Below, piece by piece: positions 3,822-32,864 of a stretch of 36,643 bases of DNA; within the stretch, counting starts at the first letter, position 1; every line of letters begins with the position of its first letter. The DNA comes from Sulfuricurvum sp. (lineage in GTDB: Bacteria; Campylobacterota; Campylobacteria; Campylobacterales; Sulfurimonadaceae), in NCBI GenBank assembly GCA_022729835.1, contig DZBC01000001.1:1-36643 (forward strand). Direction: 5' to 3'. The position numbers and the translations under genes are program-made. The notes under the pieces were generated by a model. That model did no database searches. It was not told the origin of the DNA and saw only the letters and a program-made list of their open reading frames with translations.

Positions 3822-5080
3822 TACGCGTTGGAGTGATCGGCGTAGGGACGGTTGGGACATCGGTTGTTAAGATTCTCGAAGAGAATAGCGACATTATCGA
3901 GGCACGTGCAGGTAGCAAGATTGTTGTAAAAGCGGGAGCTGTGCGTTCGCTTGAAAAAGAGCGTGGCCTCTCTATCCCGCTGACAACCGATCCTTATGAC
4001 ATCGTCAACGATCCTGAAATTGATATTGTGGTAGAGCTGATGGGTGGAGCCGAAGCGCCTTATGAGGTGGTGAAGCAGGCGTTGCAAAATGGTAAGGCCG
4101 TTGTGACTGCCAACAAGGCGATGCTCGCGTATCACCGCTATGAACTCCAAGACTTCGCAGGAGATATTCCTTTTGAGTTTGAAGCCAGCGTTGCCGGTGG
4201 AATACCGATAATCAATGCACTTCGTGATGGACTCTCGGCAAACCATATCGAATCAATCGTTGGGATTATGAACGGTACATGTAACTATATGCTCAGTAAG
4301 ATGATGCATGAGGGCGTGGCGTTTGATGTGATTTTAAAAGAAGCTCAGGCGCTGGGCTACGCGGAGGCTAATCCGACTTTTGATATCGGTGGATTCGATG
4401 CCGCCCACAAGCTTCTAATTTTGGCATCGATTGCTTATGGTATCGACGCCAAACCTGAAGATATCCTTATTGAAGGCATCGAAGCAGTGACGCAAGATGA
4501 TATCTATTTTGCCAAAGAATTCGGCTATGTTTTGAAGCTTCTGGCTATTGCCAAACGTGACGGTGACGAGGTTGAGCTTCGTGTGCATGCCGCTTTGATT
4601 GATGCAAATGAAATGATTGCCAAGATCGACGGGGTGATGAACGGTATTAGTGTTGTAGGTGACAAAGTGGGCGAGACACTTTATTATGGCCCTGGCGCAG
4701 GCGGCGATGCTACAGCGAGTGCAGTCATTGCCAATATTATCGATATCGCTAGGTCGGGGCGTAAAAGTCGGCCGATGCTTGGATTTAACCGTCCTCTTGA
4801 GCATGGATTGCGTCTCAAAGCAAAAGATGCGATTCGCTCCAAATATTATTTGCGCCTTAAGGTGGTTGATGAACCCGGTGTCCTTGCGCAGATTAGTAAG
4901 ATTTTCGGTGAACAGACTATTTCGATTGCGGCGATGTTACAAAACAGTATCGACAGCCGTTATGCCAACTTGCTTATTTCAACCCACACGGCCCATGAGC
5001 GTGATATCCAAAAAGTGCTTTTGGAGCTAGAGGGACTTCATTTTGTTGCTGCAAAACCCGTCATGATTCGCATTGTGTGA
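3818..5080 (+). CDS. hom: homoserine dehydrogenase
   Basis: 420 aa. The ATGA start/stop overlaps the upstream gene. It has the Rossmann motif VGVIGVGTVGTSV, the catalytic-domain motifs ANKA and GIMNGTCNYM, and a C-terminal ACT-like domain (YYLRLKVVDEPGVLAQISKIF). Confidence 0.9.
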   Translation: MIRVGVIGVGTVGTSVVKILEENSDIIEARAGSKIVVKAGAVRSLEKERGLSIPLTTDPYDIVNDPEIDIVVELMGGAEAPYEVVKQALQNGKAVVTANKAMLAYHRYELQDFAGDIPFEFEASVAGGIPIINALRDGLSANHIESIVGIMNGTCNYMLSKMMHEGVAFDVILKEAQALGYAEANPTFDIGGFDAAHKLLILASIAYGIDAKPEDILIEGIEAVTQDDIYFAKEFGYVLKLLAIAKRDGDEVELRVHAALIDANEMIAKIDGVMNGISVVGDKVGETLYYGPGAGGDATASAVIANIIDIARSGRKSRPMLGFNRPLEHGLRLKAKDAIRSKYYLRLKVVDEPGVLAQISKIFGEQTISIAAMLQNSIDSRYANLLISTHTAHERDIQKVLLELEGLHFVAAKPVMIRIV

Positions 5081-5257
5081 ATTATGACCTCATTTTAATA
5101 TTATTTTTACCTTAATTTAGATAGCATACGCTTCCGTTTTGCCTTACTAGGACAAATTTGTTGAATGTTTGTCGATACCTGAGGGTATCCGCAAGTATTG
5201 GTGCTGCGTCGGCGCACCTACATGTAAGGATAAGCGAAGCCAATTTTGGAGCTTACC
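5081..5257 (+). promoter_or_regulatory. promoter plus long leader region of the rpmJ-rplQ ribosomal/rpoA operon (boundaries not defined)
   Basis: This 177-nt spacer has an AT-rich stretch containing TAATAT (5096-5101). It also has the hairpin GATACC-TGAG-GGTATC (5174-5189), a second GC stem GGTGC...GCACC (5200-5218) and a palindrome copy at 5219-5227. Confidence 0.3.
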
Positions 5258-5371
5258 ATGAAAGTACGTTCTTCGGTAAAGAAGATGTGTGATGACTGCA
5301 AGGTGATCAAACGTAAAGGAATTGTAAGAGTAATCTGCAAAACCCCTAAACACAAACAGAGACAAGGATAA
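5258..5371 (+). CDS. rpmJ: 50S ribosomal protein L36
   Basis: This 38-codon ORF is absent from the ORF track: [37 protein letters not shown]. It has the C-x2-C-x12-C-x4-H zinc-ribbon pattern and ends 2 nt before rpsM. Confidence 0.93.
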
Positions 5372-5373
5372 GT

Positions 5374-5736
5374 ATGGCACGTATCGCTGGTGTAGACTTG
5401 CCCAAGAAAAAAAGAGTTGAGTATGGATTGACCTATGTTTATGGCATCGGTTTGCATACTTCACGCCTCATTCTCGACGCAGCCGGTATCAATTACAACA
5501 AGCGCGTTTATGAACTGAGTGAAGATGACGTTGCGAATATTACCAGAGAGATTCGTGCCAAGCACACGGTCGAGGGTGACCTGCGCAAACAAGTAGCTAT
5601 GGACATCAAAGCATTGATGGACCTTGGAAGCTACCGTGGACTTCGTCATCGAAAAGGATTGCCATGCCGTGGCCAAAGCACGAAAACCAATGCGCGTACA
5701 CGCAAAGGCAAACGTAAAACTGTCGGTTCGGCGTGA
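5374..5736 (+). CDS. rpsM: 30S ribosomal protein S13
   Basis: 120 aa. [26 protein letters not shown]... is canonical S13, and the operon position is conserved. Confidence 0.97.
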
Positions 5737-5748
5737 GGATAACAACAG

Positions 5749-6141
5749 ATGGCAAAAAGAAAAGTAACTCGTAAAAAAGTTGTTAAAAAAAATATTGCGC
5801 GCGGAGTGATTCACATTTTTGCTTCGTTCAACAACACGCTGGTCACCATCACTGATGAGATGGGGAACATGATCGCATGGAGTTCAGCCGGAAGCCTAGG
5901 CTTTAAAGGCAGCAAAAAGTCAACTCCGTTTGCTGCTCAGGCAGCAGTTGAGGCAGCAGTTGAAAAAGCAAAAATCCATGGCCTCAAAGAGCTCGGTATC
6001 AGAGTGCAAGGCCCAGGATCGGGTCGTGAAACTGCTGTTAAATCTGTCGGTACAATCGAGGGTATCCGTGTTACATTCATGAAAGATGTAACTCCGCTGC
6101 CACACAACGGTTGTCGCGCACCAAAACGTCGTAGAGTCTAA
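5749..6141 (+). CDS. rpsK: 30S ribosomal protein S11
   Basis: 130 aa. [18 protein letters not shown]...[17 protein letters not shown] is canonical S11. Confidence 0.97.
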
Positions 6142-6153
6142 GGAGGATCACCA

Positions 6154-6780
6154 ATGGCAAGATACAGAGGTCCAGTAGAAAAAATCGAAAGAAGATTCGG
6201 CGTCAGTCTCAATCTTAAGGGTGAGCGCCGCTTGGCCGGTAAATCGGCACTAGACAAGCGTCCTTATGCACCAGGCCAGCACGGTCAACGTCGCAAAAAG
6301 CCTTCAGAATATGGACTCCAGCTCAACGAGAAGCAAAAAGCCAAGTTCATGTATGGTCTTTCCGAAAAGCAAATGCAAGCAGTATTTGCTGAAGCGAAGC
6401 GCCGTACAGGGAATACAGGTATCAACCTTGTCACCCTGCTTGAGCAGCGTCTTGACAACGTGGTTTACCGCATGGGCTTTGCTACAACCCGTCGCTTTGC
6501 ACGCCAATTGGTCAATCATGGCCATGTTATCGTAGATGGACAGCGTGTGGATATCCCTTCGTACCGCGTCAAACCGGGTCAGAAAGTGGAGATCCACGAG
6601 AAGAGTAAGAAAAATGTTCAAGTAGTTCGTGCGCTTGAGTTGACCAACCAGACAGGTTTGGCACCGTGGGTTGATATCGACGCTGAGAAAGTGTTCGGTA
6701 TTTTTACACGTCTTCCTGAGCGAGAAGAGGTTGTTATCCCGGTTGAAGAACGTCTGATCGTTGAGCTTTACTCGAAATAA
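6154..6780 (+). CDS. rpsD: 30S ribosomal protein S4
   Basis: 208 aa. [19 protein letters not shown]...[29 protein letters not shown] is canonical S4 with an S4 RNA-binding domain. Confidence 0.97.
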
Positions 6781-6805
6781 TTTATAACAATAAAGGCACT
6801 GACGC

Positions 6806-7798
6806 ATGAACAAAATCAAAACATCGCCGCTTCTTCCGCAAGAGTTTGTCGTTGAGCAGGTTAGTGAGAACGAAGCCAATGTCATAGCCTATCCGTTTGA
6901 AACCGGATATGCTGTTTCGTTGGCACATCCTCTCCGCCGCTTTTTGCTCAGTAGCTCTGTAGGATTTGCACCAGTCGCCATCAAAATTGAGGGTGCTCAG
7001 CATGAATTTGATTCTGTGCGCGGTATGCTCGAGGATATTTCTGATTTTATCATCAATCTAAAAGGCGTGCGCTTCAAGCTAAAAAACAATGCCAAAGAGG
7101 TTGAAATATCATATAGCTTTATCGGACCCTGCGAGATTAAGGGTGGCGATCTTGGTGGTGAAAGCGTCGAAATAGTTACACCCGACGCTTTCTTGGCCAC
7201 ACTGAACGAAGATGCAACATTGAATTTTTCATTGAAAATTTATCAGGGGATTGGGTATGTGCCTAGTGAGGATATCCGTGATCAGCTTGATGACGGATAT
7301 ATCGCACTGGATGCTTATTTTACGCCTGTTCGAAGAGCCACGTACAAAATAGAGAACGTGCTTGTAGAAGACAACCCGAATTTTGAAAAAGTGATCCTCA
7401 ATATCGTCACGGACGGGCAGATTAGCCCACATGAAGCGTTCAAGAATGCACTGCAGGTGATGTATGCTCAACTTTCTGTATTCAACAGTGAGATCAGCAT
7501 ACAAATGCCTACATCGATAGAGCGTTCAGAAGAGACGCCAGAACTTAGAAGATTGATGGGTAGAATCGATGAACTTGGCCTGAGTGCGCGCAGTTTTAAC
7601 TGTCTAGATCGCTCCAGTATCAAATACATCGGTGAAATTGTCATGATGAGCCAAAATGATTTGAAAAATGTCAAAAATCTTGGCAAAAAATCATATGAAG
7701 AGATTGTCGAAAAAATCGAAGAGTACGGCTTTAGCGTAGGTGCTGAGTTGCCTAGCGATCTTCTTTCGACATTAAAAAAGAAAATTGAAGCTGAATAA
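6806..7798 (+). CDS. rpoA: DNA-directed RNA polymerase subunit alpha
   Basis: 330 aa. It has the N-terminal assembly domain and the C-terminal domain motif [23 protein letters not shown], and sits between rpsD and rplQ. Confidence 0.96.
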
Positions 7799-7807
7799 GG
7801 ATACCCA

Positions 7808-8158
7808 ATGAGACACCGTCATGGATACCGCAAACTGGGGCGCACCAGTGCACACCGCGCTGCTCTGCTTAAAAACCTCACGATTGCATTAGTCGAAAGT
7901 GGAAAAATTGAAACGACATTGCCAAAAGCAAAAGAGCTTCGCTCTTATGTCGAAAAATTGATTACTACTGCCGGAAAAGGTGATGCAAACGCACACCGCG
8001 CTATTTTCGCTTCATTGCAAAATAAAGAAGCTACGAAAAAGCTGGTCAATGAGATCGGCCCAAAATATGTAGAACGCCCAGGCGGCTACACCCGTATTAC
8101 CCGCACCCGTATTCGCCGCGGTGATGCGACTACTATGGCATTTGTCGAACTCGTCTAA
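7808..8158 (+). CDS. rplQ: 50S ribosomal protein L17
   Basis: 116 aa. [24 protein letters not shown]... is canonical L17. Confidence 0.97.
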
Positions 8159-8170
8159 GAGTTCGGCACC

Positions 8171-8190
8171 CATCCCCCTCCATCCCCCTC
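8171..8190. repeat. tandem direct repeat, 2 x CATCCCCCTC
   Basis: Two adjacent identical decamers lie 13 nt after the rplQ stop, in a C-rich stretch with no obvious hairpin. Confidence 0.9.
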
Positions 8191-8305
8191 GCAGGCGCTA
8201 CATATAACGTGCTACATTAACAAGCTTCGTTTACCTCCCTTTTTTTATGGCGTGTTAAGCGAGTTTGCCCTATTTTTCGGGACAGTTTATCAAAGGTTAA
8301 AATAG

Positions 8306-8581
8306 ATGATTCCATTTAGTGACGAAGAGTTGATAGCGCCGGTCCGTCGTGTAATTGAAAAGGTTCGCCCGACACTGGCACTAGACGGTGGGGATATTGA
8401 TTTCATCACCGTCAAAAACGGCGTTGTGTATGTTCAGCTCAAAGGAGCCTGTGTTGGTTGCGGAAGCAGCGGCAATACGCTTAAGTATGGTGTCGAACGC
8501 CACTTGCGCATAGAGATTCATCCTGAATTAACGGTCGTGAATGTACCATTCGGAATGGAAAATCAGATCGACAATCTTTAG
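8306..8581 (+). CDS. NifU C-terminal-domain (Nfu-type) Fe-S cluster protein
   Basis: 91 aa. VRPTLALDGGDIDFITVKNGVVYVQLKGACVGCGSS carries the CxxC motif typical of the NifU_C/Nfu domain. Confidence 0.85.
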   Translation: MIPFSDEELIAPVRRVIEKVRPTLALDGGDIDFITVKNGVVYVQLKGACVGCGSSGNTLKYGVERHLRIEIHPELTVVNVPFGMENQIDNL

Positions 8582-8637
8582 CATCCCTTGTTTTTTCCGA
8601 TATTTTATTCAAGAAATGATCCATTCAGGAGTGTGAG

Positions 8638-9225: not shown

Positions 9226-10520
9226 AGATCGCGCTTCGCTCCACTCCTTTTGCGTTCGTCACAGAAAATTCTACAGAGTGTGATCATCAGACGGCTTTTG
9301 TTGTCACACGTCTGAATGAAAAATATCAAGAGGATGCACATAAACACGGTGCGGTAGCATGTGTTAAGCCATCAGCTATTGCTACGTCATTCGGGATTGA
9401 TCGTATCCGCATTATAGGCATCACTGGAACTAACGGTAAGACAACGACGGCCAGCGCGATCTATTCCATGTTGTTAGACCTTGGCTATAAAGCGGCGATG
9501 CAGGGGACTCGGGGCTTCTTTATGAATGATGCCCAAGTTGAAGAGAAGTCTTTGACGACGCCTACGGTTCTCACAACCTACAGACATATTTATCAAGCAG
9601 TGAGTGCTGGATGTGATTTTTTTGTAATGGAAGTAAGCTCGCATGCGATAGCCCAAGATCGTATTGAAGGACTCCCTTTTGCTTTAAAGGTTTTGACCAA
9701 TATCACGCAGGATCATCTGGATTTTCATGGGACGCTCGAGGCGTATGTGGCAGTTAAAAACAGTTTTTTTACGGATTCCGGAATGAAGCTGGTCAACAAA
9801 GATGAGCCAAAAGCGCTGATTAACACCAAAAACGCTTTTACCTATGGCGTTGAGAACAACGCCACCTACAAGATTGTCGCATATACGCTCAAAGAGGGGA
9901 TCGGTGGAGTTATCAACCGTCTAGGAGAGATCAGCACATTTCAATCTCCGTTACATGGTTTTTTCAACCTCTACAACATGCTCTCAGCCATCGCTTCGGT
10001 ACATCTTTTGACTGAAAAACCGATGGAGTTGATTACGGAAGCGGCGGAGAACTTTGCTGGAGTTAGTGGGCGCATGGAGTGTGTGAGTACAGAACCATTG
10101 GTGATTGTGGATTTTGCGCATACGCCCGATGGTATCATACAGGTGCTAGAAGCGCTCAAAGATAAAGAGCTGCGGGTGGTTTTTGGTGCCGGGGGTGATC
10201 GGGACCGTAGCAAGCGTCCTTTGATGGGGAGGGCTGCGGAGCGCTACGCAAAGAAAATCTATCTTACCAGTGACAACCCGCGTAGCGAAGATCCTCAGGC
10301 GATTATAGATGATATTTTAGTAGGTATAGAGAATCGCTCCAAAGTACATGTAGAGCCAAATCGTAAAAAAGCGATTGAAGCAGCCCTATTAGAGCAGAAG
10401 AGCGGAGAGGCTGTGGTGGTTTTGGGGAAAGGGGATGAACGATATCAGATCATTTACGACCACCATCTTCCTTTTGATGATCGGGATGTGGTTCGAGCGC
10501 TTTTGAAAGACTTATCTTAA
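9222..10520 (+). CDS. murE: UDP-N-acetylmuramoyl-L-alanyl-D-glutamate--2,6-diaminopimelate ligase
   Basis: 432 aa. The TTG start overlaps the upstream stop. It has the Mur ligase P-loop GITGTNGKTTT, plus DNPR and the mid/C-terminal Mur domains (VVFGAGGDRDRSKRPLMG). Confidence 0.9.
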   Translation: MKIALRSTPFAFVTENSTECDHQTAFVVTRLNEKYQEDAHKHGAVACVKPSAIATSFGIDRIRIIGITGTNGKTTTASAIYSMLLDLGYKAAMQGTRGFFMNDAQVEEKSLTTPTVLTTYRHIYQAVSAGCDFFVMEVSSHAIAQDRIEGLPFALKVLTNITQDHLDFHGTLEAYVAVKNSFFTDSGMKLVNKDEPKALINTKNAFTYGVENNATYKIVAYTLKEGIGGVINRLGEISTFQSPLHGFFNLYNMLSAIASVHLLTEKPMELITEAAENFAGVSGRMECVSTEPLVIVDFAHTPDGIIQVLEALKDKELRVVFGAGGDRDRSKRPLMGRAAERYAKKIYLTSDNPRSEDPQAIIDDILVGIENRSKVHVEPNRKKAIEAALLEQKSGEAVVVLGKGDERYQIIYDHHLPFDDRDVVRALLKDLS

Positions 10521-10568
10521 ATTTTAAACCTGACTGTTTGGGCTTAAAGTGAACGATTGTTTATCCGC

Positions 10569-10574
10569 TATAAT
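10569..10574 (+). promoter_or_regulatory. candidate -10 box TATAAT for the ferredoxin-panD-ybaB string
   Basis: A perfect TATAAT lies 31 nt upstream of the ATG at 10606. The SD AAGGAG at 10595-10600 lies between them. Confidence 0.4.
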
Positions 10575-10605
10575 GCGCCGAATTTTCACTGCCTAAGGAG
10601 CTTTT

Positions 10606-10989: not shown

Positions 10990-11009
10990 GCGATTAAGGA
11001 CACAAATCA

Positions 11010-11375
11010 ATGACCATGGAAATGCTCTACAGTAAGATTCATCGAGCGACCGTAACGGATGCAAACCTAAATTATGTGGGGTCTATTACGATTGATGAGC
11101 AATTGCTAGAAGCATCGAAAATGCGTTTCGGACAGAAAGTTGAGGTTCTCAACATTAATAACGGTGAGCGTTTTTCAACCTATATCATCGTAGGTGAGCG
11201 GGGCAAGGGTGATATTTGTCTCAACGGTGCGGCGGCGCGTAAAGTACACAAGGGTGACAAAGTGATTATCGTCGCTTATGCAACTTACGAAGAGTCCGAG
11301 CTTGCGGCATATCAGCCGACTGTAGTCCTTGTGGATGACGACAATCGAATCAGCGAAGTATTGACGAGCATTTGA
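11010..11375 (+). CDS. panD: aspartate 1-decarboxylase
   Basis: 121 aa. [25 protein letters not shown] contains the Gly-Ser self-cleavage site and aligns by eye with E. coli PanD along its length. Confidence 0.93.
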
Positions 11376-11689
11376 TGTTTGACAAGATGAATCTGGGTGA
11401 GATGGGCAAGATATTCGAGGGATTGCAAGAGCAGGCGCAGAAGCTGCAGACGGAAATCGCCGCTCGTGAGTACACGGTAAAAACCGGAGGCGGTATGGTC
11501 AAAGTGACGATCTGCGGCTCTGGTGAGGTGATCGATGTAGATATCGCTGATACCTTGCTCGAAGATAAATCGTCGCTGCAAATTTTGCTGATTGCGGCAT
11601 TCAATGATGCCAACAAAATGGTCGAAGACGCTAAAAAACAGAGCGCACTGAACCTCTTTGGCGGCATGAATCCCTTTTCTCAGCGCTGA
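11375..11689 (+). CDS. ybaB: YbaB/EbfC family nucleoid-associated protein
   Basis: The ORF track starts at TTG 11372. I prefer ATG 11375, which overlaps the panD TGA by 1 nt. The sequence ...LQEQAQKLQTEIAAREYTVKTGGGMVKVTICGSGEVIDVDI... is typical YbaB. Confidence 0.85.
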   Translation: MFDKMNLGEMGKIFEGLQEQAQKLQTEIAAREYTVKTGGGMVKVTICGSGEVIDVDIADTLLEDKSSLQILLIAAFNDANKMVEDAKKQSALNLFGGMNPFSQR

Positions 11690-12690
11690 TGCGCTTTTTA
11701 CTCCTTCTATTATCTTTTGGTTACGTTCTTGTGGCATGTGAGAGTGGTTGGCTTACATGTAAGCAAAAAGCGGTGGATGCGGGGGTATTTCGCAACGGAC
11801 ACTTTGCGATTCCTTTGGCCCCTACGGTGCGCTTGGTTTACAGCGAACAAGATGATCCGAAATTCTCTCGATACGACCCCCTGCTTGGCCTAGCGCTTGT
11901 AGAAGATAAAAAGCCTTTTGCTTACCCCTACACACTTGTGCGTACCATTGACAGCAAAAAAGTTGCAGCCATCGATGCCCGCGGAGTGCATGAGGTCAAG
12001 CGGGTTTCGGCACAGTGCGGCTTGGATCGTCTTGGGGTTTGTGAGACTTCCGCTTCGAATATGGCTTTTTTGAGCGACAGTTGCTGTGCCTTGCACGCCT
12101 TGATCACGCCTAGAGGTGTGATTGACGCGGCGTTTATCGATTATTTCAAAAGTGCAGCTTGGGCAGGTTACGGAGATGCAGGCATACGCCTTGGCGAGCG
12201 CGAGGGGGGCGTTGTTGTTGCGTCGATCGATCCCTTTTTCGAGCCACTTGTATTTGAGCTTGGTGACAGGTTGATGGCCTTTGACGGGCACACGTATCGT
12301 TCTGTTTGTGCATTTGAAAAAGCGATTTTACTCTCTCGGCCAGGTAGTACACATCGATTTAAAGTCGCTAGAGGCGGGCGGGTGTTTGATGTCGATGTGT
12401 TGTTAGAGAGACGTTTGGGCGGCGGCTTGCGGCCTGATACCTACCTTGAGCGTTTGGGTATTCTGCTCGATGAACGCTATTGCATTGACACAAGCTCAAT
12501 GAGCTTGTCTGCGAGAGGTCTGCAAAAAGGAGATTGTCTGATTCAGATCAATCATCAAGACATCAAAGCCCACAGTTCAGATGCTATGTTGTGGTTGCAG
12601 GGGGATAACGCACTTCTCTTCGAGCGGCGGGGGTTGCAGTTCTTTATTCATATAAAAAGTAAAGATGCTAAAATGCCAAAAAAGATATAA
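11689..12690 (+). CDS. putative lipoprotein, possibly PDZ-like
   Basis: 333 aa. TGATG overlaps ybaB. The signal peptide has a lipobox (LLLLSFGYVLVAC). Internal segments are weakly PDZ-like, and the family is not firmly recognised. Confidence 0.5.
   Translation: MRFLLLLLSFGYVLVACESGWLTCKQKAVDAGVFRNGHFAIPLAPTVRLVYSEQDDPKFSRYDPLLGLALVEDKKPFAYPYTLVRTIDSKKVAAIDARGVHEVKRVSAQCGLDRLGVCETSASNMAFLSDSCCALHALITPRGVIDAAFIDYFKSAAWAGYGDAGIRLGEREGGVVVASIDPFFEPLVFELGDRLMAFDGHTYRSVCAFEKAILLSRPGSTHRFKVARGGRVFDVDVLLERRLGGGLRPDTYLERLGILLDERYCIDTSSMSLSARGLQKGDCLIQINHQDIKAHSSDAMLWLQGDNALLFERRGLQFFIHIKSKDAKMPKKI
11753..11762. repeat. perfect TTACATGTAA palindrome (extends to 14-mer GCTTACATGTAAGC, 11751-11764)
   Basis: Read directly. 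It lies inside the 11689 gene and is read as L-T-C-K. Confidence 0.95.
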
Positions 12691-12699
12691 CGGGTTTTC

Positions 12700-13554
12700 A
12701 TGCAGGCGTTCGAAGCTTTTATCAGTGAGCATCTTCCAAAAGCTTCAAGTTTCCATCCTCACTACGAGGCCGCACTTCAAGCAATGCTTTTAGCCGGTGG
12801 CAAACGGTTTCGACCTGCGTTGCTGCTCTCAGTGGTGCGTGCGTATGCTCCCTTGATGCTTGAGAGTGCCTATCACGCGGCGTACGCAGTTGAGTTGTTA
12901 CACACCTACTCTTTGATTCACGACGATCTACCCGTGATGGATAACGCCCCGTTGCGGCGCTCACAGCCCACCTTACATGTACGCTATAACGAGGTGACGG
13001 CAGTTTTGGTGGGCGACGCGCTCAATACCCACGCCTTTGAAGTTCTTGCTCATGCCCCTTTTTCGGATCGTGTTTTGGTGCGGCTTATTCGTGCCTTGGC
13101 TCAAAACGGCGGCGCTTCGGGGATGGTGCTTGGCCAGGCTATTGACTGCCATTTCGAAGGGCAGGCGCTGACATTGGAGCAGATGAAGGCGTTACATGTA
13201 AACAAAACGGCCAAGTTGATTGCGGCGTCGCTGAAAATGGGTGCGGTTATTGCTGGAATAAGAGTGCTCGAAGGGCCATTATATGATTTCGGCATTGATC
13301 TGGGTCTGCTCTTTCAGATTCAAGACGACATTTTGGATGTGACGCAGACGCCACAAGTGGCGGGCAAGACAACGCAAAATGATGGCAACAAAAACAGTTT
13401 TGTGACTGTTTTGGGCTTGGAGCGGGTAATTGAAGAGGCTGATGCGCTTGCCTGTGAGCTTCATGGAAGACTCGAAAATATGGATGAACGCTTGCGCTTC
13501 GAGCTTTCATCTCTGCTGCACCACTATATCAACAGACATAAGGAACATTCATGA
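12700..13554 (+). CDS. ispA: polyprenyl (farnesyl/geranyl) diphosphate synthase
   Basis: 284 aa. It carries both aspartate-rich motifs, LIHDDLPVMDN and FQIQDDILD. Confidence 0.88.
   Translation: MQAFEAFISEHLPKASSFHPHYEAALQAMLLAGGKRFRPALLLSVVRAYAPLMLESAYHAAYAVELLHTYSLIHDDLPVMDNAPLRRSQPTLHVRYNEVTAVLVGDALNTHAFEVLAHAPFSDRVLVRLIRALAQNGGASGMVLGQAIDCHFEGQALTLEQMKALHVNKTAKLIAASLKMGAVIAGIRVLEGPLYDFGIDLGLLFQIQDDILDVTQTPQVAGKTTQNDGNKNSFVTVLGLERVIEEADALACELHGRLENMDERLRFELSSLLHHYINRHKEHS
13192..13201. repeat. perfect TTACATGTAA palindrome
   Basis: Read directly. It lies inside ispA and is read as L-H-V. Confidence 0.95.
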
Positions 13555-16574: not shown

Positions 16575-17100
16575 GAATCTCCTTGTAAAAATCAATAACT
16601 TCCGTAGCGATCTGTGGCGGCAAAAGGCCCTGGTCCGGCGCGAAACGAAGGGCCGTAGAGTTGACATCTACCATTACATGTAAGGGAGTGTAATCTCCCT
16701 TGACCTCGTAACCTTTTCGACTGGCTACTACCCATGTCACCAGCGCATCGAGCGCATCAAACGCGAACCACCTTGAGAGTGTCGGTAGATTATCGGCTCC
16801 GATGATCAGGTAGAGTTTACCTTCCGGGGGAAGGTAGCGGCGCACAGTCTCGATGGTCGGAACCGGACGACCCTGACTGGTCTCAAAGGTGCTGATCTCA
16901 ACACGCGGATCATCGAAGAGTCGCTCAAGCCATTGCACCCGCAAGTGTGCTGGCGCAACGACAGTCTCTTTTAAAGGATTGCGAAAAGCAGGTACGATGA
17001 CCAGCTTGTCGATCTCGAGGTGTCTAAGCGCTGCGTCAACGACAGCAACGTGTCCTAAATGGGGCGGATCGAAACTACCACCGTAGAGTGCTACATTCAT
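16558..17100 (-). CDS. nadD: nicotinate-nucleotide adenylyltransferase
   Basis: 180 aa. The N-terminal MNVALYGGSFDPPHLGH is the nucleotidyltransferase signature. The nadD-rsfS pairing is conserved. Confidence 0.9.
   Translation of the reverse strand: MNVALYGGSFDPPHLGHVAVVDAALRHLEIDKLVIVPAFRNPLKETVVAPAHLRVQWLERLFDDPRVEISTFETSQGRPVPTIETVRRYLPPEGKLYLIIGADNLPTLSRWFAFDALDALVTWVVASRKGYEVKGDYTPLHVMVDVNSTALRFAPDQGLLPPQIATEVIDFYKEIHAQTH
16674..16683. repeat. perfect TTACATGTAA palindrome
   Basis: Read directly. It lies inside nadD (minus strand) and is read as L-H-V. Confidence 0.95.
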
Positions 17101-18376: not shown

Positions 18377-19921
<1,545 letters not shown>

Positions 19922-21487: not shown

Positions 21488-21567
21488 TGCTCTCTCCTTC
21501 TTCACCTTTGTATCAATTGCCAAATAACACTGCTTCTCGGTAAATCGCCACGACAGCTTCTAGTGCC

Positions 21568-21577
21568 TTACATGTAA
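21568..21577. repeat. perfect TTACATGTAA palindrome (12-mer CTTACATGTAAG, 21567-21578), intergenic
   Basis: Read directly. It lies between the porin terminator and the permease promoter. Confidence 0.95.
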
Positions 21578-21613
21578 GCACCTATTTGGTTCCCGATTTT
21601 GTAGCCCTTGCGC

Positions 21614-21619
21614 TATAAT
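21614..21619 (+). promoter_or_regulatory. candidate -10 box TATAAT for the permease gene
   Basis: A perfect TATAAT lies 20 nt before the ATG at 21640, with SD AAGGGAG between them. Confidence 0.4.
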
Positions 21620-23793: not shown

Positions 23794-23822
23794 ATTATAG
23801 CATACCAGATGCTACATGTAAA
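23794..23822 (-). promoter_or_regulatory. candidate nusA promoter: TTTACA-N17-TATAAT with TGc extended -10 (minus strand)
   Basis: On the minus strand, TGCTATAAT is at 23802-23794 and TTTACA at 23822-23817, with a spacer of exactly 17 nt. The -35-like hexamer is supplied by the palindrome copy at 23813-23821. Confidence 0.45.
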
Positions 23823-23861
23823 CTTTTAGAGCGGATTAACGCGCCCTTGGCTATAATGCAA

Positions 23862-23867: not shown

Positions 23868-23892
23868 TTCAGACATTTCAGAGGAGCACATC

Positions 23893-24135
23893 ATGGAGCT
23901 AAAACTCGCCCGAAGCGAGCCAAGCGGCAAGCCAAAAAAGACCGATATCGAAAAGATTGACGAGCAATTAAACAAGCACGATACCACCATCATCTATTTT
24001 GATCGGGAAAATTCGCATAAGGATCTGCTGGAGCTTCAAGACCATTATGAGTCCAAAGGCCGAAGTTTCTATATGCGTGAAGTGCGCTACGGATTGGCCG
24101 ATACCGAGTACATGTATGAGGTTCATATCCTCTAA
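23893..24135 (+). CDS. small conserved protein, probable homologue of H. pylori HP0268 (80-aa nicking endonuclease/RNase)
   Basis: 80 aa with a strong SD. Its stop overlaps the miaB ATG (TAATG). Its size and its position directly upstream of miaB match HP0268/HP0269 as I recall them. The sequence match has not been verified. Confidence 0.5.
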
Positions 24136-25436: not shown

Positions 25437-26065
25437 AAAAGCGCAAAAAGCGGCTAATCCGCTCTTTGGCGCTTTGGGCTTTGCCTCCCATCGGTGCTGT
25501 GTTGATTCGTATGATTTACCTTACATGTAAGAAAAAATTTCATGTCGAAGCGCCTATCGGTGAGCGGCCTGTGATCTTTGCCTTTTGGCATGGGGATTTG
25601 TTGATGCAGCCTTACATGTACGCCCATCTTCGCTCCTCTCCCAAAGCCAATGTCATTATCAGCGACCATTTCGACGGTATGATCATTGCCAAAATCATGC
25701 ACTATTTTGCGCTCGGAACGATTCACGGCTCATCCAATCGAAGTGCCGCAAGGGTGCTCTTTCAGGCGATTCGTACGCTCAAAGAAGGGTATGACATCGG
25801 CATCACACCTGATGGTCCCAAAGGGCCAAGACACGAAGTGGCTGATGGTGTGGTCGTGATGGCACAAAAGGCGCAGGTGGGCGTGGTGATTTACAGTTGT
25901 GTTCCATCGCATTATTGGCAGCTCACCAGTTGGGATCGATTTACAATTCCCAAACCTTTTAGTCGGCTTGATTTTTATGCTTCGGCACCTCTGCGGCTTG
26001 AAGGTATGGCGCTGGATGCGGCAAAGGCACGGATCAAAGAGGAGCTGATGCGTCATGCGTTTTAA
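25433..26065 (+). CDS. DUF374 / lysophospholipid acyltransferase-like family protein
   Basis: 210 aa. ATGA overlaps miaB. It has [21 protein letters not shown]...[15 protein letters not shown] and [11 protein letters not shown], the DUF374 signature blocks. Confidence 0.75.
25521..25530. repeat. perfect TTACATGTAA palindrome (12-mer CTTACATGTAAG, 25520-25531)
   Basis: Read directly. It lies inside the DUF374 gene and is read as L-T-C-K. Confidence 0.95.
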
Positions 26066-28363: not shown

Positions 28364-28865
28364 TTTCATTGCGCCAAGGCCTAAGCGTTTTTTGGCGCCG
28401 GAATTTCGGTTGGTTCTCTTCTTTTTTGCTACGACGCTGGTGATGTTGGGGGGGACTTACGCTTTTTTGGCGTATCAAAGCTGGAGCTACATGCAGCAGC
28501 GTCAAGCCAGTAGCGCACATATCGTGTCGATGCGTGCCGAGATTGTTGAGTTTGAGAAGGGCATCGCCTTTGTCGAGCGTGAGCGGCAGTTGGGCGAGGA
28601 GATATTCACCGCCAATACCGTCCTCAAGGAGAGCATTAAAAACCTATTCGATCTCGTCCCTGAACGCATTACGCTCACGAAGGCGGAATTGGACAAAAAT
28701 GCGTTGATTCTTTATGGGGTCACACCCACGAAAGACATCTACGAATTCATGCTGCATGCGCCTTTGCGCTCCATCTTTCACCGCAGTTACAGCAGTTTTT
28801 ATCCACTGGAAAATGGGTGGTTGCGTTTTGTTTCGACCAACTACCTTGACGAGGAGGAGCTGTGA
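28353..28865 (+). CDS. PilN-like bitopic membrane protein
   Basis: The track ORF starts at 28305. I prefer ATG 28353 (SD AGAGGA), which overlaps the upstream stop by 11 nt. The layout is a short basic N-terminus, a TM helix (LVLFFFATTLVMLGGTYAFLAY), a coiled coil, then an alpha/beta domain (ITLTKAELDKNALILYGVTP), which is the PilN architecture. Confidence 0.5.
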   Translation: MRHSFIAPRPKRFLAPEFRLVLFFFATTLVMLGGTYAFLAYQSWSYMQQRQASSAHIVSMRAEIVEFEKGIAFVERERQLGEEIFTANTVLKESIKNLFDLVPERITLTKAELDKNALILYGVTPTKDIYEFMLHAPLRSIFHRSYSSFYPLENGWLRFVSTNYLDEEEL

Positions 28866-29428
28866 AGCTCAATCTCGCACGTCAGACGCTCTACATGTTG
28901 ATTGTGGCAATCGTGTTAATGGTGATCGTTTTTCTGTTTTCGCTCTTTTTTCTGATTCCTCAGGGCAAAACCTACCGTATGGAACGAATTTTGATGAAGA
29001 AAGAGGCGCTTCAAGAGCGTGAATATCAAGCGCTTTATGATGAAACGCACGCACATCTGCAGCAGCTTCGCAGCAATCACAAGCATGTGATCGGTGCTTT
29101 TGAAAACCGATTTGATCCAGCGCGTTTTGTTGATCTGTTCCGTGGCGCTTTTGATGCCCTTACCCTTTCACCGCTATTAACGGTGGAAAATAATGAGAGC
29201 GAATTTACGATCTATGAGGTAAACACCTCTTCGCGCATCGATTCACCACGTATTTTTTACGATTTTTTAGATCAGATCAACAAGAGTGAGTGGGTGATCA
29301 AGGTTAATTTCCCGATCCACTTTGAGCGTGAAGGAGCGCAGATTCGCTCCAGTTTTAGCATGCGTGTCTACGCTTTTGACAAAAGTGAAACGACCCAAGA
29401 GAATGCTTCGGGCTCTTCAAATAGATAG
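28862..29428 (+). CDS. PilO-like bitopic membrane protein
   Basis: 188 aa. GTGA overlaps the upstream stop, and SD GAGGAGG is present. A TM helix (LYMLIVAIVLMVIVFLFSLFFLI) and a coiled coil are followed by the C-domain FTIYEVNTSSRIDSPRIFYDFLDQINKSEWVIKVNFPIHF, which matches the PilO pattern. Confidence 0.5.
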   Translation: MKLNLARQTLYMLIVAIVLMVIVFLFSLFFLIPQGKTYRMERILMKKEALQEREYQALYDETHAHLQQLRSNHKHVIGAFENRFDPARFVDLFRGAFDALTLSPLLTVENNESEFTIYEVNTSSRIDSPRIFYDFLDQINKSEWVIKVNFPIHFEREGAQIRSSFSMRVYAFDKSETTQENASGSSNR

Positions 29429-30357
29429 CCGCGCAGCAGTGCGGGGATACCCAGAGTGCGGCAGTGCTCTTTAAAAGTTGCCTCCATCACGCATCGGCGA
29501 TAGGGGGCGATATAGGTGTAGTGCGCTGTGATGGAGACAGCAAAGCGTCTGCCGACAACCCAATTGCAGCGCCCTTTGAGGGCTTGGCGATCTCCTTTGC
29601 GCATCAGATGTCCACGTGATTTAAGTATGCGGTCGATGACGATTTTGTTGTGCCGCGCGTCGCTTAAGGTGGTAAAAAGGGTCAACTCTTTGGTATGGTA
29701 GAGGTGCGGGGCCTCAAAAGCGGTGTCCTCTTCGAGATACTCAAAGCTACGCTTGATCCCCTGTGCATACTCAGCCAGCAGGGGGGTGGCGAAGCGGTGG
29801 CGGAAGCGGTTACGCGCTAGGGCTTCGTCGGTATTGCTTGCGTCTTCTAGCCATTGGATCTCTTGGTGGCGGAGATACTCCAGCAACTCCGCTTTGCTTA
29901 CATGTAAGAGGGGCCGGATCAGCGTGTAGCCTTCACGCTCTTCGATTGTTTGCATCCCCAAAAGTTCATACACACCTGATCCTTTGCAAAGCTGCATCAA
30001 AAACCACTCCAAACGATCACCCAGATGGTGGGCCGTTAGCAAGACATCATAACCGTGTTCACGTATAAGACGCTCGAAAAATTGGTAGCGCATGCGCCGT
30101 GCTTCTGACTCAAAATTGCGTTCGATAGGCGGCGCAATCATTTGATGGCAGGTTTTGTGGTGGATGCGGGCGAGTTCCATAGCCCCCTGCGCTTCGGTGT
30201 CACTTTGGGCTCGTGTGCGGTAATTGACATGGGCGATATCAAAAGGGCAACCTTGTTCTAGCAACAGGTGAAACAGTGCGGTAGAGTCAGAACCGCCGGA
30301 AAAGGCGAGGAGGGCTTTAGCGCCCTGAAGTGCCGCTAGTGTGTGCTGCTCAAGCAA
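29368..30357 (-). CDS. tilS: tRNA(Ile)-lysidine synthase
   Basis: 329 aa. It has the PP-loop motif LAFSGGSDSTAL, HVNYRTR and TAHHLGDRLE. It overlaps the rimO stop by 8 nt. Confidence 0.9.
   Translation of the reverse strand: MLEQHTLAALQGAKALLAFSGGSDSTALFHLLLEQGCPFDIAHVNYRTRAQSDTEAQGAMELARIHHKTCHQMIAPPIERNFESEARRMRYQFFERLIREHGYDVLLTAHHLGDRLEWFLMQLCKGSGVYELLGMQTIEEREGYTLIRPLLHVSKAELLEYLRHQEIQWLEDASNTDEALARNRFRHRFATPLLAEYAQGIKRSFEYLEEDTAFEAPHLYHTKELTLFTTLSDARHNKIVIDRILKSRGHLMRKGDRQALKGRCNWVVGRRFAVSITAHYTYIAPYRRCVMEATFKEHCRTLGIPALLRGYLFEEPEAFSWVVSLLSKA
29898..29907. repeat. perfect TTACATGTAA palindrome (12-mer CTTACATGTAAG, 29897-29908)
   Basis: Read directly. It lies inside tilS (minus strand) and is read as L-H-V. 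Confidence 0.95.
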
Positions 30358-31660
30358 TCACGCACCCAAGCAGCTTGTCGCCTGCACGCTCTGTGATGCG
30401 CACGGTGTAGATCTGTCCGAAGCCCAGCGCTTCGTCGATCTCACGGTCGTTGATGTAGATCTCTCCGTCCACATCCGGCGCCCAGATGAGTGCGCGAGCG
30501 CTGAGCAGAGATTCGTGTTCGTCGCTTTCGCCGTCAATGATCACCTGCAACTCTTGAGCAATAAGGGCATCGAGGCTTTTGTGGGTTACATGTAAGGCAA
30601 TATTACCTAGATGTTGCGCCCGTTGCTCGATGGTTGCATCGTCTAAATGGCCGTCCATGCCAAAGGCGCTTGTCCCCTCTTCGTCGGAATAGGAAAAGAC
30701 GTTGATGCGGTCAAACCCAAAGGTAGCGGCAAAATCGCAAAGCTCCTCAAGCATCACTTCGCTCTCTTGCGGATGACCGACGATGAAGCTTGTGCGCACG
30801 AAACTGTTCGGTAGCGCACGCATGGCGCGCAACAACTCAAGTGTTTTGTCGCGCCCGAATCCACGCTTCATCAGCCGCAGCATATCGTCATTGATGTGCT
30901 GGATCGGCATGTCGAAATAGTTGTGAAACACCTTTGATTCGCCTATACATGTAACGAGTTTGAGGCTGGTGGTGGAGGGGTAGAGGTAGAGAATGCGTGC
31001 GCTTTTGACCCCTTCGATCAGCTCGATGCGCTTGATGAGGTAGATCAGACCGTCTTGGATATTCTGGTCGCGCAGGTAAGAGCTGGAGTCTTGGGAGACA
31101 AAGCTAAAATCATAGTAGCCGCGCTTCACCAGCCCCTCTACTTCACGCGCCACCACATCCAGATCGCGCGAATGGAGCTTGCCTTTGAACGAGGGGATGG
31201 CGCAGAAGCTGCAATGCTGGTTGCACCCCTCGGAGAGTTTGATGTAGGCATGGTAGCTTGAGCCGCTCACCACGCGCTCTTCGGTGCCGATGAGGTAGAC
31301 TTGCTCGCTAAAGCGACTCTGTTTTTGCGCGAGTAGCTCGTCGATGCGGTCGTAATCGCCCACTCCGGTAAAGATGTCCACCTCTTCAAGCTCTTTGGAA
31401 AGCTCCTCTTTGTAGCGCTCGGAGAGACAGCCCGTCATCACAAGCACCGACTCCTCTTTTCGCTGCTCATGCAGATTCATGATGGTGCCCAGCGATTCGG
31501 CTTTGGCGGCATCGATAAAGCCGCAGGTGTTGACGATGATGACATCCGCTTCGCTTGCTTCGTCGGTGAGGGCGTAGTTTTGGAGTCGTCCCATCATCAC
31601 TTCGGTATCGACAAGATTTTTGGTACAGCCCAAAGAGACGACATGTAACTTTTTTTGCAT
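30350..31660 (-). CDS. rimO: ribosomal protein S12 methylthiotransferase
   Basis: 436 aa. It has the N-domain LHVVSLGCTKNLVDTE, the radical-SAM motif GCNQHCSFCAIPSFKG and a C-terminal TRAM domain. It is a MiaB paralogue with the RimO-type N-terminus. Confidence 0.88.
   Translation of the reverse strand: MQKKLHVVSLGCTKNLVDTEVMMGRLQNYALTDEASEADVIIVNTCGFIDAAKAESLGTIMNLHEQRKEESVLVMTGCLSERYKEELSKELEEVDIFTGVGDYDRIDELLAQKQSRFSEQVYLIGTEERVVSGSSYHAYIKLSEGCNQHCSFCAIPSFKGKLHSRDLDVVAREVEGLVKRGYYDFSFVSQDSSSYLRDQNIQDGLIYLIKRIELIEGVKSARILYLYPSTTSLKLVTCIGESKVFHNYFDMPIQHINDDMLRLMKRGFGRDKTLELLRAMRALPNSFVRTSFIVGHPQESEVMLEELCDFAATFGFDRINVFSYSDEEGTSAFGMDGHLDDATIEQRAQHLGNIALHVTHKSLDALIAQELQVIIDGESDEHESLLSARALIWAPDVDGEIYINDREIDEALGFGQIYTVRITERAGDKLLGCVIA
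30586..30595. repeat. perfect TTACATGTAA palindrome
   Basis: Read directly. It lies inside rimO (minus strand) and is read as L-H-V. Confidence 0.95.
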
Positions 31661-31671
31661 TCTATCTGCCC

Positions 31672-31697
31672 TTGTTATAATGGCACCATTATAACAA
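31672..31697. promoter_or_regulatory. 26-bp inverted repeat TTGTTATAATGG-ca-CCATTATAACAA carrying an extended -10 (TGtTATAAT) on each strand
   Basis: It has perfect 12-bp arms and a 2-nt spacer, and sits in the 46-nt gap between the divergent rimO ATG (31660) and the flavoprotein GTG (31707). TATAAT is at 31676-31681 on the plus strand and 31693-31688 on the minus strand. Confidence 0.5.
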
Positions 31698-31706
31698 AGA
31701 GGGCGT

Positions 31707-32864
31707 GTGAAGCAGTTTGACGTTTTGATTTTGGGTGCGGGCGCGAGCGGGCTGATGTGCGCGGCGCAGATTGTGGCGCAGAGCAGCTTACACGTAGGGC
31801 TGATCGACGGAAATACTCAAATTGGCATGAAGTTACGGATCTCAGGCGGGGGAAAGTGTAATATCACCAACACTGAGGTGGATGCATCGCACTATCTGGG
31901 AGATGAGGCCTTTGTACAGCGCGTGCTTGATGCTTTTTCGCGTGATGATCTTCTGCGCTTTCTGGCTATACACGATCTGCGTCCCATTATACGCAAGGAG
32001 CGCTACTACTTTTGTCCTGACTCTTCTGAGCAGATTATTCGGATTTTACGCACGCTTTGCGCTCCATGCACCATGTTGTTAGGCCGGAAGTGCTTACATG
32101 TAACCCGCGAAGAGGATCAATTTGTCGTCGTGACCGATCAAGGGGTGTATCGTGCCGGCAATCTGGTTGTCGCTACAGGTGCGGAGAGTTATAAAAGTAT
32201 CGGAGCGAGTGCGGTGGGACTGGAAATTGCCAAAAGTTTTGGTCATGCAGTAAAACCGTTTTATCCGGCGCTTGTGGGCATGACTTTGCAAAGCGATCAG
32301 TTTTGGATGAAAGAGCTGAGCGGTATTTCGCTACCGGTGCGCATTAGGGTAGGACAGAAGGTGTTACAAGAAGATCTGCTTTTTGCGCATAAAGGAATTA
32401 GCGGACCGGCGGTGCTGAGCGCTTCGCTCTATTGGCATAAAGGGGAAATGTCGATCGATTTTTTGCCAACGGTTGAACTAAACCGCCTTTGTGGACGCGA
32501 TCAAAAGCAGATCAGTACGGTGTTGCCGCTACCAAAACGCTTTGTGAAGGCTTTTCTCGAGACAATTGGCGTACCTGACAAACCCTGCGGCTCCCTTACG
32601 CTGCAGGAGCGATCAAGGCTTGAAGCGCTACAGGATTACAGGTTCTCTCCTGCAGGCAATTTTGGCTTCACAAAAGCTGAAGCGTGTCGTGGCGGTGTCG
32701 ATACCAGCCAAATTGATCCCGCTTCTATGGAGAGTTTGCGGCAAAAGGGACTCTATTGGATTGGTGAAGTGCTCGATGTGACCGGGGAGTTGGGCGGATA
32801 TAATTTTCAGTGGGCTTTCAGCAGTGCAGTGGTGTGTGCGAGGAATTTGCGGCAGAATCCTTAA
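31707..32864 (+). CDS. NAD(P)/FAD-dependent oxidoreductase, HI0933/YhiN (BaiN-like) family
   Basis: 385 aa with a GTG start. The dinucleotide-binding motif is DVLILGAGASGLMCA. SGGGKCNITN and the C-terminal GEVLDVTGELGGYNFQWAFSS are typical of the HI0933-like family. Confidence 0.8.
   Translation: MKQFDVLILGAGASGLMCAAQIVAQSSLHVGLIDGNTQIGMKLRISGGGKCNITNTEVDASHYLGDEAFVQRVLDAFSRDDLLRFLAIHDLRPIIRKERYYFCPDSSEQIIRILRTLCAPCTMLLGRKCLHVTREEDQFVVVTDQGVYRAGNLVVATGAESYKSIGASAVGLEIAKSFGHAVKPFYPALVGMTLQSDQFWMKELSGISLPVRIRVGQKVLQEDLLFAHKGISGPAVLSASLYWHKGEMSIDFLPTVELNRLCGRDQKQISTVLPLPKRFVKAFLETIGVPDKPCGSLTLQERSRLEALQDYRFSPAGNFGFTKAEACRGGVDTSQIDPASMESLRQKGLYWIGEVLDVTGELGGYNFQWAFSSAVVCARNLRQNP
32094..32103. 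repeat. perfect TTACATGTAA palindrome
   Basis: Read directly. It lies inside the flavoprotein gene and is read as L-H-V. Confidence 0.95.

Follow-up and report, generated by a model that had tools for sequence, protein, structure and literature searches.

A highly iterated CATG-centred palindrome in two clades of Campylobacterota

What keeps a short palindrome recurring about once every 2 kb in a run of ordinary housekeeping genes? The question is raised by a 36,643-nucleotide stretch of Sulfuricurvum sp. DNA (GenBank assembly GCA_022729835.1, contig DZBC01000001.1, positions 1–36,643; hereafter the window), in which a sequence-only reading had picked out the palindrome TACATGTA together with its longer forms. 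We conclude that the palindrome is almost certainly a genuine DNA-level element of the highly iterated palindrome (HIP) type. First, all of the copy numbers and coordinates claimed for it were reproduced exactly in these 36.6 kb, through which the organism was sampled. The 8-mer TACATGTA occurs 18 times (~490 per Mb, or ~0.5 per kb), compared with a mean of 0.27 and a maximum of 2 in dinucleotide-preserving shuffles of the window and an expectation of 0.35 under an order-2 Markov model, giving observed-to-expected (O/E) ratios of 67 and 51, respectively. The 10-mer TTACATGTAA occurs nine times (shuffle mean 0.05, maximum 1), so the large excess claimed for both words stands. These are the most frequent 8-mer and 10-mer of any kind in the window. 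Further extension yields four copies of the 12-mer CTTACATGTAAG (starting at 11752, 21567, 25520 and 29897), one of the 14-mer GCTTACATGTAAGC (11751–11764) and two identical copies of CCTTACATGTACGC (12972 and 25611). The inner hexamer ACATGT is present 22 times (shuffle mean 8.5, maximum 15) and 18 of these 22 lie within TACATGTA, indicating that the specificity spans at least 8 bp.

The excess is not a product of codon usage. The sequence-only reading had proposed a comparison with codon-shuffled genes; when synonymous codons were shuffled 1,000 times within each of the 39 window genes, the 15 coding copies of TACATGTA compared with a mean of 1.38 and a maximum of 5 (~11-fold excess), and the eight coding copies of TTACATGTAA with a mean of 0.28 and a maximum of 2. 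Nor do the copies share anything beyond the word itself. Outside ±7 bp, the identity between copies is 27.7%, compared with 27.6% between random places, and no longer repeat family containing the sites was found in the window, in agreement with the earlier claim that they are not miniature inverted-repeat transposable elements (MITEs), repetitive extragenic palindromic (REP) elements or duplicated segments. Together, the unrelated flanks and the codon-shuffle excess show a DNA-level word made by point substitutions and not a mobile element. Single-stranded 14-mers fold at −0.1 to −2.6 kcal/mol, and with such negligible hairpin energies the word is most likely read as duplex DNA. The 15 coding copies are spread over 11 genes on both strands (hom, murE, a DUF7488-PDZ gene, ispA, nadD, tpiA, an HP0268-like small gene, a DUF374 gene, tilS, a rimO-like gene and an HI0933 flavoprotein gene) and three copies lie in spacers (5219, 21569 and 23813). 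This reproduces the claimed spread over 11 unrelated genes and 3 spacers, and bears out the view that the copies are not operators of a single regulon.

Two kinds of explanation can be weighed at this point. There is next to no probability that the copies derive from the ends or debris of some small mobile element (a MITE, a REP or an insertion sequence (IS) target duplication), or that they are an artefact of codons or of a protein motif. TTAC, an insertion target of the IS608 type, is present on both strands of the word and provides a lead only. Against such an origin stand the unrelated flanks and the lack of a longer repeat family, the in-frame position of copies in conserved genes at orthologous sites, the failure of codon shuffling to give the excess, and the occupation of two frames, both strands and spacers. 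Measured against REP and MITE elements, defined by at least 25–35 bp of shared sequence, a stable hairpin and a mostly intergenic location, the copies share no 25–35 bp, form no stable hairpin and are 77% coding. The Ssn/NTS system of Neisseria was also rejected, being made of ~30-bp oriented hairpins and not of a short loop-less palindrome.

The word has nevertheless left its mark on proteins. Its two main reading frames are free of stops, TTA-CAT-GTA encoding Leu-His-Val and xTT-ACA-TGT-AAx encoding x-Thr-Cys-Lys/Asn, whereas the third, TAC-ATG-TAA, contains a stop and is occupied by truncated copies only. Across 14 motif-bearing loci (295 kb, 155 copies), the coding copies divide into 74, 42 and 3 in these frames, and non-coding DNA makes up 7% of the bases yet holds 23% of the copies, a 3-fold enrichment in spacers. 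In the window, Leu-His-Val occurs 10 times versus 1.98 expected (~5-fold); nine of the ten are spelled (T/C)TA-CAT-GT, with TTA accounting for only 7% of Leu codons, and all three occurrences of Thr-Cys-Lys/Asn are spelled ACA-TGT-AA. A conserved protein motif as the origin of the word, which the sequence-only reading had dismissed, is therefore excluded by the two frames, both strands and the spacers, but the proteins themselves are affected, Leu-His-Val and Thr-Cys-Lys/Asn being imposed on them. At the murE site (10345), the residue is His, encoded by the word, where most motif-free relatives have Tyr, Val or Phe, and the word and His are found at the same position in the Sulfurospirillaceae loci L049, L051 and L053. 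In this one traced case, to judge from the aligned genes, the word coincides with a difference in the amino acid itself. A word of this kind can push rare residues (His and Cys) and a rare Leu codon into housekeeping proteins.

Next, we scanned 80 loci around the transketolase gene from species-representative genomes of Campylobacterota, the relatives being sampled as loci of 10–22 kb. Two separate clades on the transketolase tree carry the word. The closest motif-bearing relative of the window, a Helicobacteraceae-labelled metagenome-assembled genome (MAG; locus L003), has 9 copies in 15.8 kb, and five loci of the Sulfurospirillaceae clade (L049, L051, L052, L053 and L061) have 5–11 copies each. 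Pooled, the motif-bearing loci contain 64 copies of TACATGTA in 140 kb versus 2.0 expected, and the other Campylobacterota loci contain 7 copies in 1.12 Mb versus 21.5 expected; the word is absent or avoided in the Sulfuricurvum, Sulfurovum and Campylobacter loci. Within the Sulfurospirillaceae clade it is present in S. deleyianum, S. barnesii and S. oryzae, and eight full-length loci from these species and their allies (168 kb) hold 98 copies versus 2.6 expected. Many metagenome contigs carry it too. Thus, the word is not confined to the window but hyper-abundant in related genomes. In 73 motif-free Campylobacterota loci (L004–L082), ACATGT and GCATGC are both scarce (O/E 0.40 and 0.42), which suggests widespread restriction pressure on RCATGY-type sites in the phylum.

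A search of metagenomes for two 10-mers 15–45 bp apart returned 120 contigs, which were ascertained by the motif itself; after removal of the ascertained pairs, 221 further copies remained (0.35 per kb). Tandem arrays on L207 and L219 from the same search are ascertainment artefacts and were set aside and not counted; the array on L207 (2369–2904), found only through the search pattern, consists of 14 units of a 38-bp repeat with TTACATGTAA in each. A scan of viral contigs for CTTTACATGTAAAG gave mostly single chance hits. One cluster of five copies in 190 bp on the viral contig L104 (350–550) turned out to be a TTGACA / TTTACA(C) iteron array; it is probably the promoter or origin region of a phage and has nothing to do with the word on the chromosomes. 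An inovirus-like prophage in an isolate genome (IMG 2558860208; L155) carries 7 copies of TACATGTA in 11.9 kb at 33% G+C. It encodes Zot and a secretin and lies beside genes for PLD-like and Mrr-like nucleases and an IS256-type transposase.

Other palindromes came to light in genomes of the phylum. An uncultured Sulfurospirillum sp. MAG (L067) lacks TACATGTA and has 13 copies of the palindrome ATCATGAT in 16.9 kb versus ~1.2 expected; this CATG-centred word may be another dialect, and it is not enriched in the window (3 observed versus 1.8 expected). In two Campylobacterales MAGs (L025 and L009), the top palindromic 8-mer is GCGATCGC, the cyanobacterial HIP1, with 5 copies in 8.3 kb (0.13–0.78 expected) and 3 copies in 11.2 kb, respectively.

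Where the word is present, it is maintained. In eight Sulfurospirillaceae loci, aligned over orthologous DNA at 70–85% nucleotide identity, 79 of 97 copies (81%) are conserved at orthologous positions versus 19% of random 8-mers, counted over locus pairs that are not phylogenetically independent. All seven copies are common to L049 and L051, and all six to L049 and L053. The 12972 copy in ispA has the word at the orthologous position in L003, L006 and L053, and the 219-bp spacing to the second ispA copy is kept in Sulfurospirillaceae loci, which places the 12972 copy in L049, L051 and L052 too; the pair recurs in both motif-bearing clades. In L048, which adjoins the motif-bearing L052 on the tree, none of four copies is conserved and only one- and two-off remnants are left; judging by these sequences, the copies seem to have decayed once the factor that maintains them was lost. 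One-off variants of the 8-mer occur at about the expected frequency (O/E ~1), with neither enrichment nor clear depletion.

The shape of the site tells something about what may read it. Its consensus is (S)CTTACATGTAAG(S), and the information content falls off gradually to ±7 bp: T/A reaches ~80–88% at positions ±4 and ~72–83% at ±5, the window clade has C at ±6 where Sulfurospirillaceae have T, and a weak preference for C or S is seen at ±7. A graded ~14-bp palindrome with a lineage-dependent ±6 fits a dimeric reader. The lineage dependence of ±6 resembles the dialects reported for the DNA uptake sequence (DUS) in Neisseriaceae.

Such a reader could be an abundant two-fold symmetric chromosomal protein, with the sites kept by selection for its own function and not through a drive in natural transformation (see below). 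It might be a nucleoid-associated or architectural protein, or one that, like SeqA, recognizes methylated CATG and serves replication, segregation or repair. We regard this explanation as possible though doubtful. The graded palindrome is typical of a dimeric DNA-binding protein, negligible hairpin energy agrees with reading as duplex DNA, and the positional conservation (81% versus 19%) joins the lack of enrichment of one-off copies, which implies that sites are perfect or absent. Copies are also 3-fold enriched in spacers, and two of the three window spacer copies lie ~40 bp upstream of GCTATAAT (−10-like) boxes (21567–21619 and 23813–23858). However, over 155 pooled sites the distance from copy to TATAAT has no clear peak and only a weak excess at 30–50 bp, and no candidate protein was identified. 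The word is also lineage-specific, whereas general nucleoid proteins (for example, YbaB, encoded in the window) would presumably be widely shared. Noc, SlmA, MatP and ParB sites are likewise 12–16-bp palindromes bound by dimers and often lie inside genes, but they number tens per genome and are regional, whereas ~1,000 copies are extrapolated here and each locus sampled from the motif-bearing genomes has 0.5 copies per kb, which sets the word apart from such arrays. At ~500 per Mb, this is roughly 100 times the density of those site sets, and the sequence-only suggestion of a Noc/SlmA/MatP-type site is weakened to that extent.

A link to methylation was provided by Sulfurospirillum. No DNA methyltransferase (MTase) gene is present in the 36.6-kb window, and a strict regular-expression screen of 504 kb of motif-rich DNA found none. 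A looser screen of motif-rich DNA returned one true MTase, on the metagenome contig L322; its other two hits, to a photolyase and a fumarase, were false positives. The L322 enzyme is a D12-class N6-adenine DNA methyltransferase encoded beside an ArsS-family kinase gene. Its closest homologues are found in S. deleyianum (95% identity), S. barnesii (85%), S. oryzae (65%) and Sulfurospirillum sp. SCADC (60%), and a 50%-identical homologue is named M.NlaIII, a CATG methylase. Nine Sulfurospirillaceae contigs encode members of this clade (51–95% identity), with a response regulator gene upstream and, in most loci, transglutaminase-core, MerT/HMA and DEAD helicase genes downstream, sometimes together with a small open reading frame (ORF) that gave no family match. 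No restriction gene lies near the MTase at any of the nine loci. All nine are motif-rich: the eight full-length loci have 8–17 copies of TACATGTA per 21 kb, and L332 has 5; in the latter, an ArdA-bearing inserted island (1–8500) beside the orphan methylase has no copy and the adjacent 11 kb of core DNA has all five. As a control, Helicobacter himalayensis encodes a 51%-identical MTase within a restriction-modification island; there, the word is absent and CATG is strongly avoided (15 in 21 kb).

Direct evidence for the modification is available from S. barnesii SES-3, in which Sulba_2268 is M.Sba3II, a type II enzyme that forms N6-methyladenine (m6A) at cATg, with 99.1% of sites methylated and no partner endonuclease listed (Blow et al. 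2016, PMC4752239). The gene order of L325 fits Sulba_2268, a second methylase gene five genes away matching Sulba_2273. In S. barnesii, which carries the same word, the CATG centre is thus m6A on both strands, made by a solitary M.NlaIII-family enzyme. The methylation that the sequence-only reading had guessed at the central CATG is borne out by these published single-molecule real-time (SMRT) data in S. barnesii, whereas the window contributes no MTase gene of its own.

Methylation opens two further explanations. In one, the word is a functionless, neutral by-product of an MTase-linked mutation or repair bias, such as very-short-patch-like conversion of near-matches. Gain and loss that track lineages, with only one- and two-off remnants in L048, would suit this explanation, as would the point-substitution origin and the coinciding amino-acid difference in murE, the presence of the word in a prophage (L155) and the repair-linked origins proposed for HIP1 (Elhai 2015, PMC4390886). 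We nonetheless judge it improbable. The methylation in relatives is m6A, which creates no deamination mismatches; TATATGTA, which would arise from a C-to-T change, shows no depletion (O/E 1.16), and none of the one-off classes has a clear deficit; a specificity of 8–14 bp would be needed, far beyond the 4-bp MTase site; and no Vsr-like gene was seen in the small genome samples. The m6A chemistry, where m5C (5-methylcytosine) would be needed, and the frequency of TATATGTA also set the word apart from a very-short-patch footprint of the Dcm/Vsr type. The repair footprint offered as an option by the sequence-only reading is weakened accordingly, since one-off variants are neither depleted nor enriched and the mark in relatives is m6A.

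In the other, the copies are epigenetic regulatory sites at which an orphan CATG methylase competes with a regulator and switches expression, as at Dam or CcrM targets. Orphan MTases are often tied to unmethylated regulatory sites (Blow et al. 2016), spacers hold more than their share of copies, and two window copies lie upstream of −10-like boxes. This explanation is very unlikely: 77% of copies are within coding sequences of unrelated housekeeping genes, 99.1% of CATG sites are methylated in S. barnesii, and there is no consistent promoter spacing.

The nearest analogues named by the sequence-only reading, HIP1 and uptake sequences, were upheld. HIPs occur at 300–2,700 copies per Mb with O/E ratios of tens to hundreds (Elhai 2015, PMC4390886). 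The palindromic 8-mer described here, at ~490 per Mb and O/E 51–67, falls within the HIP pattern of hundreds to thousands per Mb and O/E of tens or more. It is also dispersed in coding and non-coding DNA without a longer repeat, arises by substitution (near-matches are found in the conserved genes of relatives) and is kept at orthologous positions (79 of 97 versus 19%, more weakly between the window and L003). As with HIP1, it is a palindromic octamer with lineage-specific palindromic extensions, dispersed, substitution-built and positionally conserved, absent from some lineages that have other palindromes instead, and it contains the target of conserved orphan methyltransferases, here in Sulfurospirillum relatives. 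It is not HIP1 proper, which is GCGATCGC in cyanobacteria with methylation by DmtA and DmtC; here the word is TACATGTA, in another phylum. HIP1 carries m6A at GATC and m5C at CGATCG, whereas one modification is known here, m6A at CATG by an M.NlaIII-family enzyme. One-off copies are common for HIP1 (Elhai 2015) and not enriched here, and the specificity here extends gradually to 14 bp.

Within the phylum, the closest parallel is the RAATTY motif of Campylobacter jejuni, also a palindrome with a central m6A-T step and a conserved orphan MTase, CtsM. The MTase described here, likened to CtsM as an orphan m6A enzyme, is D12-class and M.NlaIII-like. In C. concisus loci (L075–L082, 109 kb), AAATTT, the A-form of the CtsM-methylated uptake motif, occurs 900 times (O/E 4.8–10) and TAAATTTA occurs 115 times versus 8–11 expected, whereas GAATTC, TAATTA and CAATTG are avoided and not one ACATGT is present (15 expected). 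TAAATTTA differs from TACATGTA solely at the symmetric positions 3 and 6, with the methylated adenine at the same place. The two systems differ in what is enriched: in Campylobacter it is the 6-bp MTase target itself, at ~8 per kb, whereas here the 4-bp CATG is not enriched and only its 8–14-bp superset is, at 0.5 per kb. No enrichment of AAATTT was found in the window or in Sulfurospirillum.

The word also resembles DUS and the uptake signal sequences (USS). It is hyper-abundant across the core genome at a density of ~1 per 1–2 kb, close to the ~1 per kb of those words, and, as with those words, a 9–12-mer is in two-orders-of-magnitude excess; it lies in genes in tolerated frames, shaping peptides, is enriched in spacers and has clade-specific dialects. 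DUS and USS, however, lack palindromic symmetry and have no known requirement for methylation, and no equivalent of their receptors (ComP for DUS) is known here. It is not a member of the DUS/USS family: it is palindromic and without a known receptor.

What, then, would drive such a word through a genome? We tentatively favour, at somewhat less than even confidence, a HIP-type, methyl-centred self-recognition word that is probably read in natural transformation. The word is written by point substitutions into unrelated core genes and spacers, in stop-free frames, and a two-fold symmetric protein would read ~14 bp of duplex DNA around the methylated centre. This reader would most likely act in natural transformation, at uptake or soon after, and give preference to self DNA. 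Word-bearing fragments would thereby be passed on in excess, and copies would build up across the genome by molecular drive until coding constraints halt the increase. The same kind of drive has been put forward for DUS/USS, for the RAATTY motif of Campylobacter jejuni and, recently, for HIP1. The suggested role in transformation draws on the RAATTY/CtsM and HIP1 precedents. In C. jejuni, uptake is restricted to DNA with RAATTY methylated by the orphan CtsM (PMC8468864); in Synechococcus PCC 7002, methylated HIP1 increases transformation (bioRxiv 10.1101/2024.09.10.611283); and a correlation is reported between the abundance of HIP1 and genes for DNA uptake (type IV secretion system; bioRxiv 10.64898/2026.06.24.733823).

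Several observations weigh against a self-recognition word of this kind. The association of MTase and motif is confounded by phylogeny, all nine loci belonging to one family. CATG itself is not enriched (140 observed versus ~141 from base composition; O/E 0.84 pooled), so that methylation alone cannot define a word of 8–14 bp and a separate reader must be postulated. The word is present in the inovirus-like prophage L155, which a purely chromosomal recombination drive does not predict. The window and L003 share just one of 3–4 alignable copies. Last, one-off variants are not enriched, whereas uptake-sequence models and data usually show many decayed copies.

A broader proposal extends the self-recognition word to Campylobacterota as a whole, in which related palindromes with a methyl mark would label self DNA, each lineage with its own dialect, and the competence machinery would read all of them through a common TA-N-(m6A)T-N-TA frame. 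The dialects may be TACATGTA around m6A-CATG in Sulfurospirillum and the window clade and AAATTT or TAAATTTA around m6A-RAATTY in Campylobacter, and may further include ATCATGAT in the Sulfurospirillum-labelled MAG and even GCGATCGC in some Campylobacterales MAGs. We consider this extension unlikely; if it were true, an exchange of the orphan methylase together with its reader would change thousands of genomic sites and set boundaries to gene flow.

For 30 years, highly iterated palindromes have posed a puzzle in cyanobacteria, and only recently were they linked to methylation-dependent transformation. Our literature searches found no previous description of such a palindrome in Campylobacterota, Sulfurospirillum included, as the sequence-only reading had maintained. 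The word is an independent case of the HIP type in a further phylum, distinct both in its sequence and in its orphan methylase. Three of the species that carry it (S. deleyianum, S. barnesii and S. oryzae) are cultured and have complete genomes, S. barnesii with a SMRT methylome, which makes Sulfurospirillum a second system for asking which factor recognizes such palindromes and if they label self DNA for uptake. The palindrome can also be used as a marker for binning Campylobacterota MAGs and may help in the design of DNA constructs for Sulfurospirillum genetics.

The individual copies in the window are as follows. TACATGTAA lies in hom (4276–4284, codons G-T-C-N) and again in the hom–rpmJ spacer (5219–5227), and TACATGTA lies in murE (10345–10352, K-V-H-V-E). 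The perfect 14-mer GCTTACATGTAAGC (11751–11764, L-T-C-K) is in the DUF7488-PDZ gene, 62 bp downstream of ybaB (region 11372–11764); a Borrelia homologue of ybaB/ebfC binds a short GTnAC palindrome. The ispA gene contains CCTTACATGTACGC (12972–12985, T-L-H-V) and, 219 bp after it, TTACATGTAA (13192–13201, A-L-H-V-N). The same 10-mer is found in the minus-strand gene nadD (16674–16683, P-L-H-V), a copy common to L003, and in tpiA (18520–18529, S-L-H-V-K), the 3′ end of which carries TACATGTA (19070–19077, S-L-H-V-Q). Two spacer copies lie ~40 bp upstream of a GCTATAAT box each: the 12-mer CTTACATGTAAG upstream of a permease gene (21567–21578) and TACATGTAA between nusA and the HP0268-like gene (23813–23821), with TACATGTA inside the latter gene (24109–24116). 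The DUF374 gene has the 12-mer CTTACATGTAAG (25520–25531, Y-L-T-C-K-K) and CCTTACATGTACGC in the rare third frame (25611–25624, P-Y-M-Y-A), where the 10-mer is impossible because a TAA stop would arise. On the minus strand, tilS holds the 12-mer CTTACATGTAAG (29897–29908, L-H-V), and the rimO-like gene holds TTACATGTAA (30586–30595, L-H-V) and TACATGTAA (30946–30954). The last copy, TTACATGTAA, is in the HI0933-like flavoprotein gene (32094–32103, L-H-V). One-off copies are TACATGTT (28892–28899) and GACATGTAA (31640–31648), the latter at the 5′ end of the rimO-like gene.

The gene content of the window is that of ordinary housekeeping genes: hom, rpmJ-rpsM-rpsK-rpsD-rpoA-rplQ, murE, panD, ybaB, the DUF7488-PDZ gene, ispA, tkt, a SpoU methylase gene, rsfS, nadD, pgk, tpiA, nusA, two MiaB/RimO-type radical-SAM genes, the DUF374 gene, a Xer-type recombinase gene, tilS and the HI0933 flavoprotein gene. 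A 1,118-amino-acid ORF (33017–36373) is free of the palindrome, and neither a Pfam match nor an exact record in the protein collection was found for it; it includes a diverged internal direct repeat (33281–33480 versus 33635–33834, 73% identity). The window has a G+C content of 48%. The nearest relatives of its transketolase are those of Sulfuricurvum and Sulfurimonadaceae-like MAGs (75–81% amino-acid identity). Over a 12.7-kb piece the window matches MAG GCA_973318225.1, and over another piece the Logan assembly of SRR407181.

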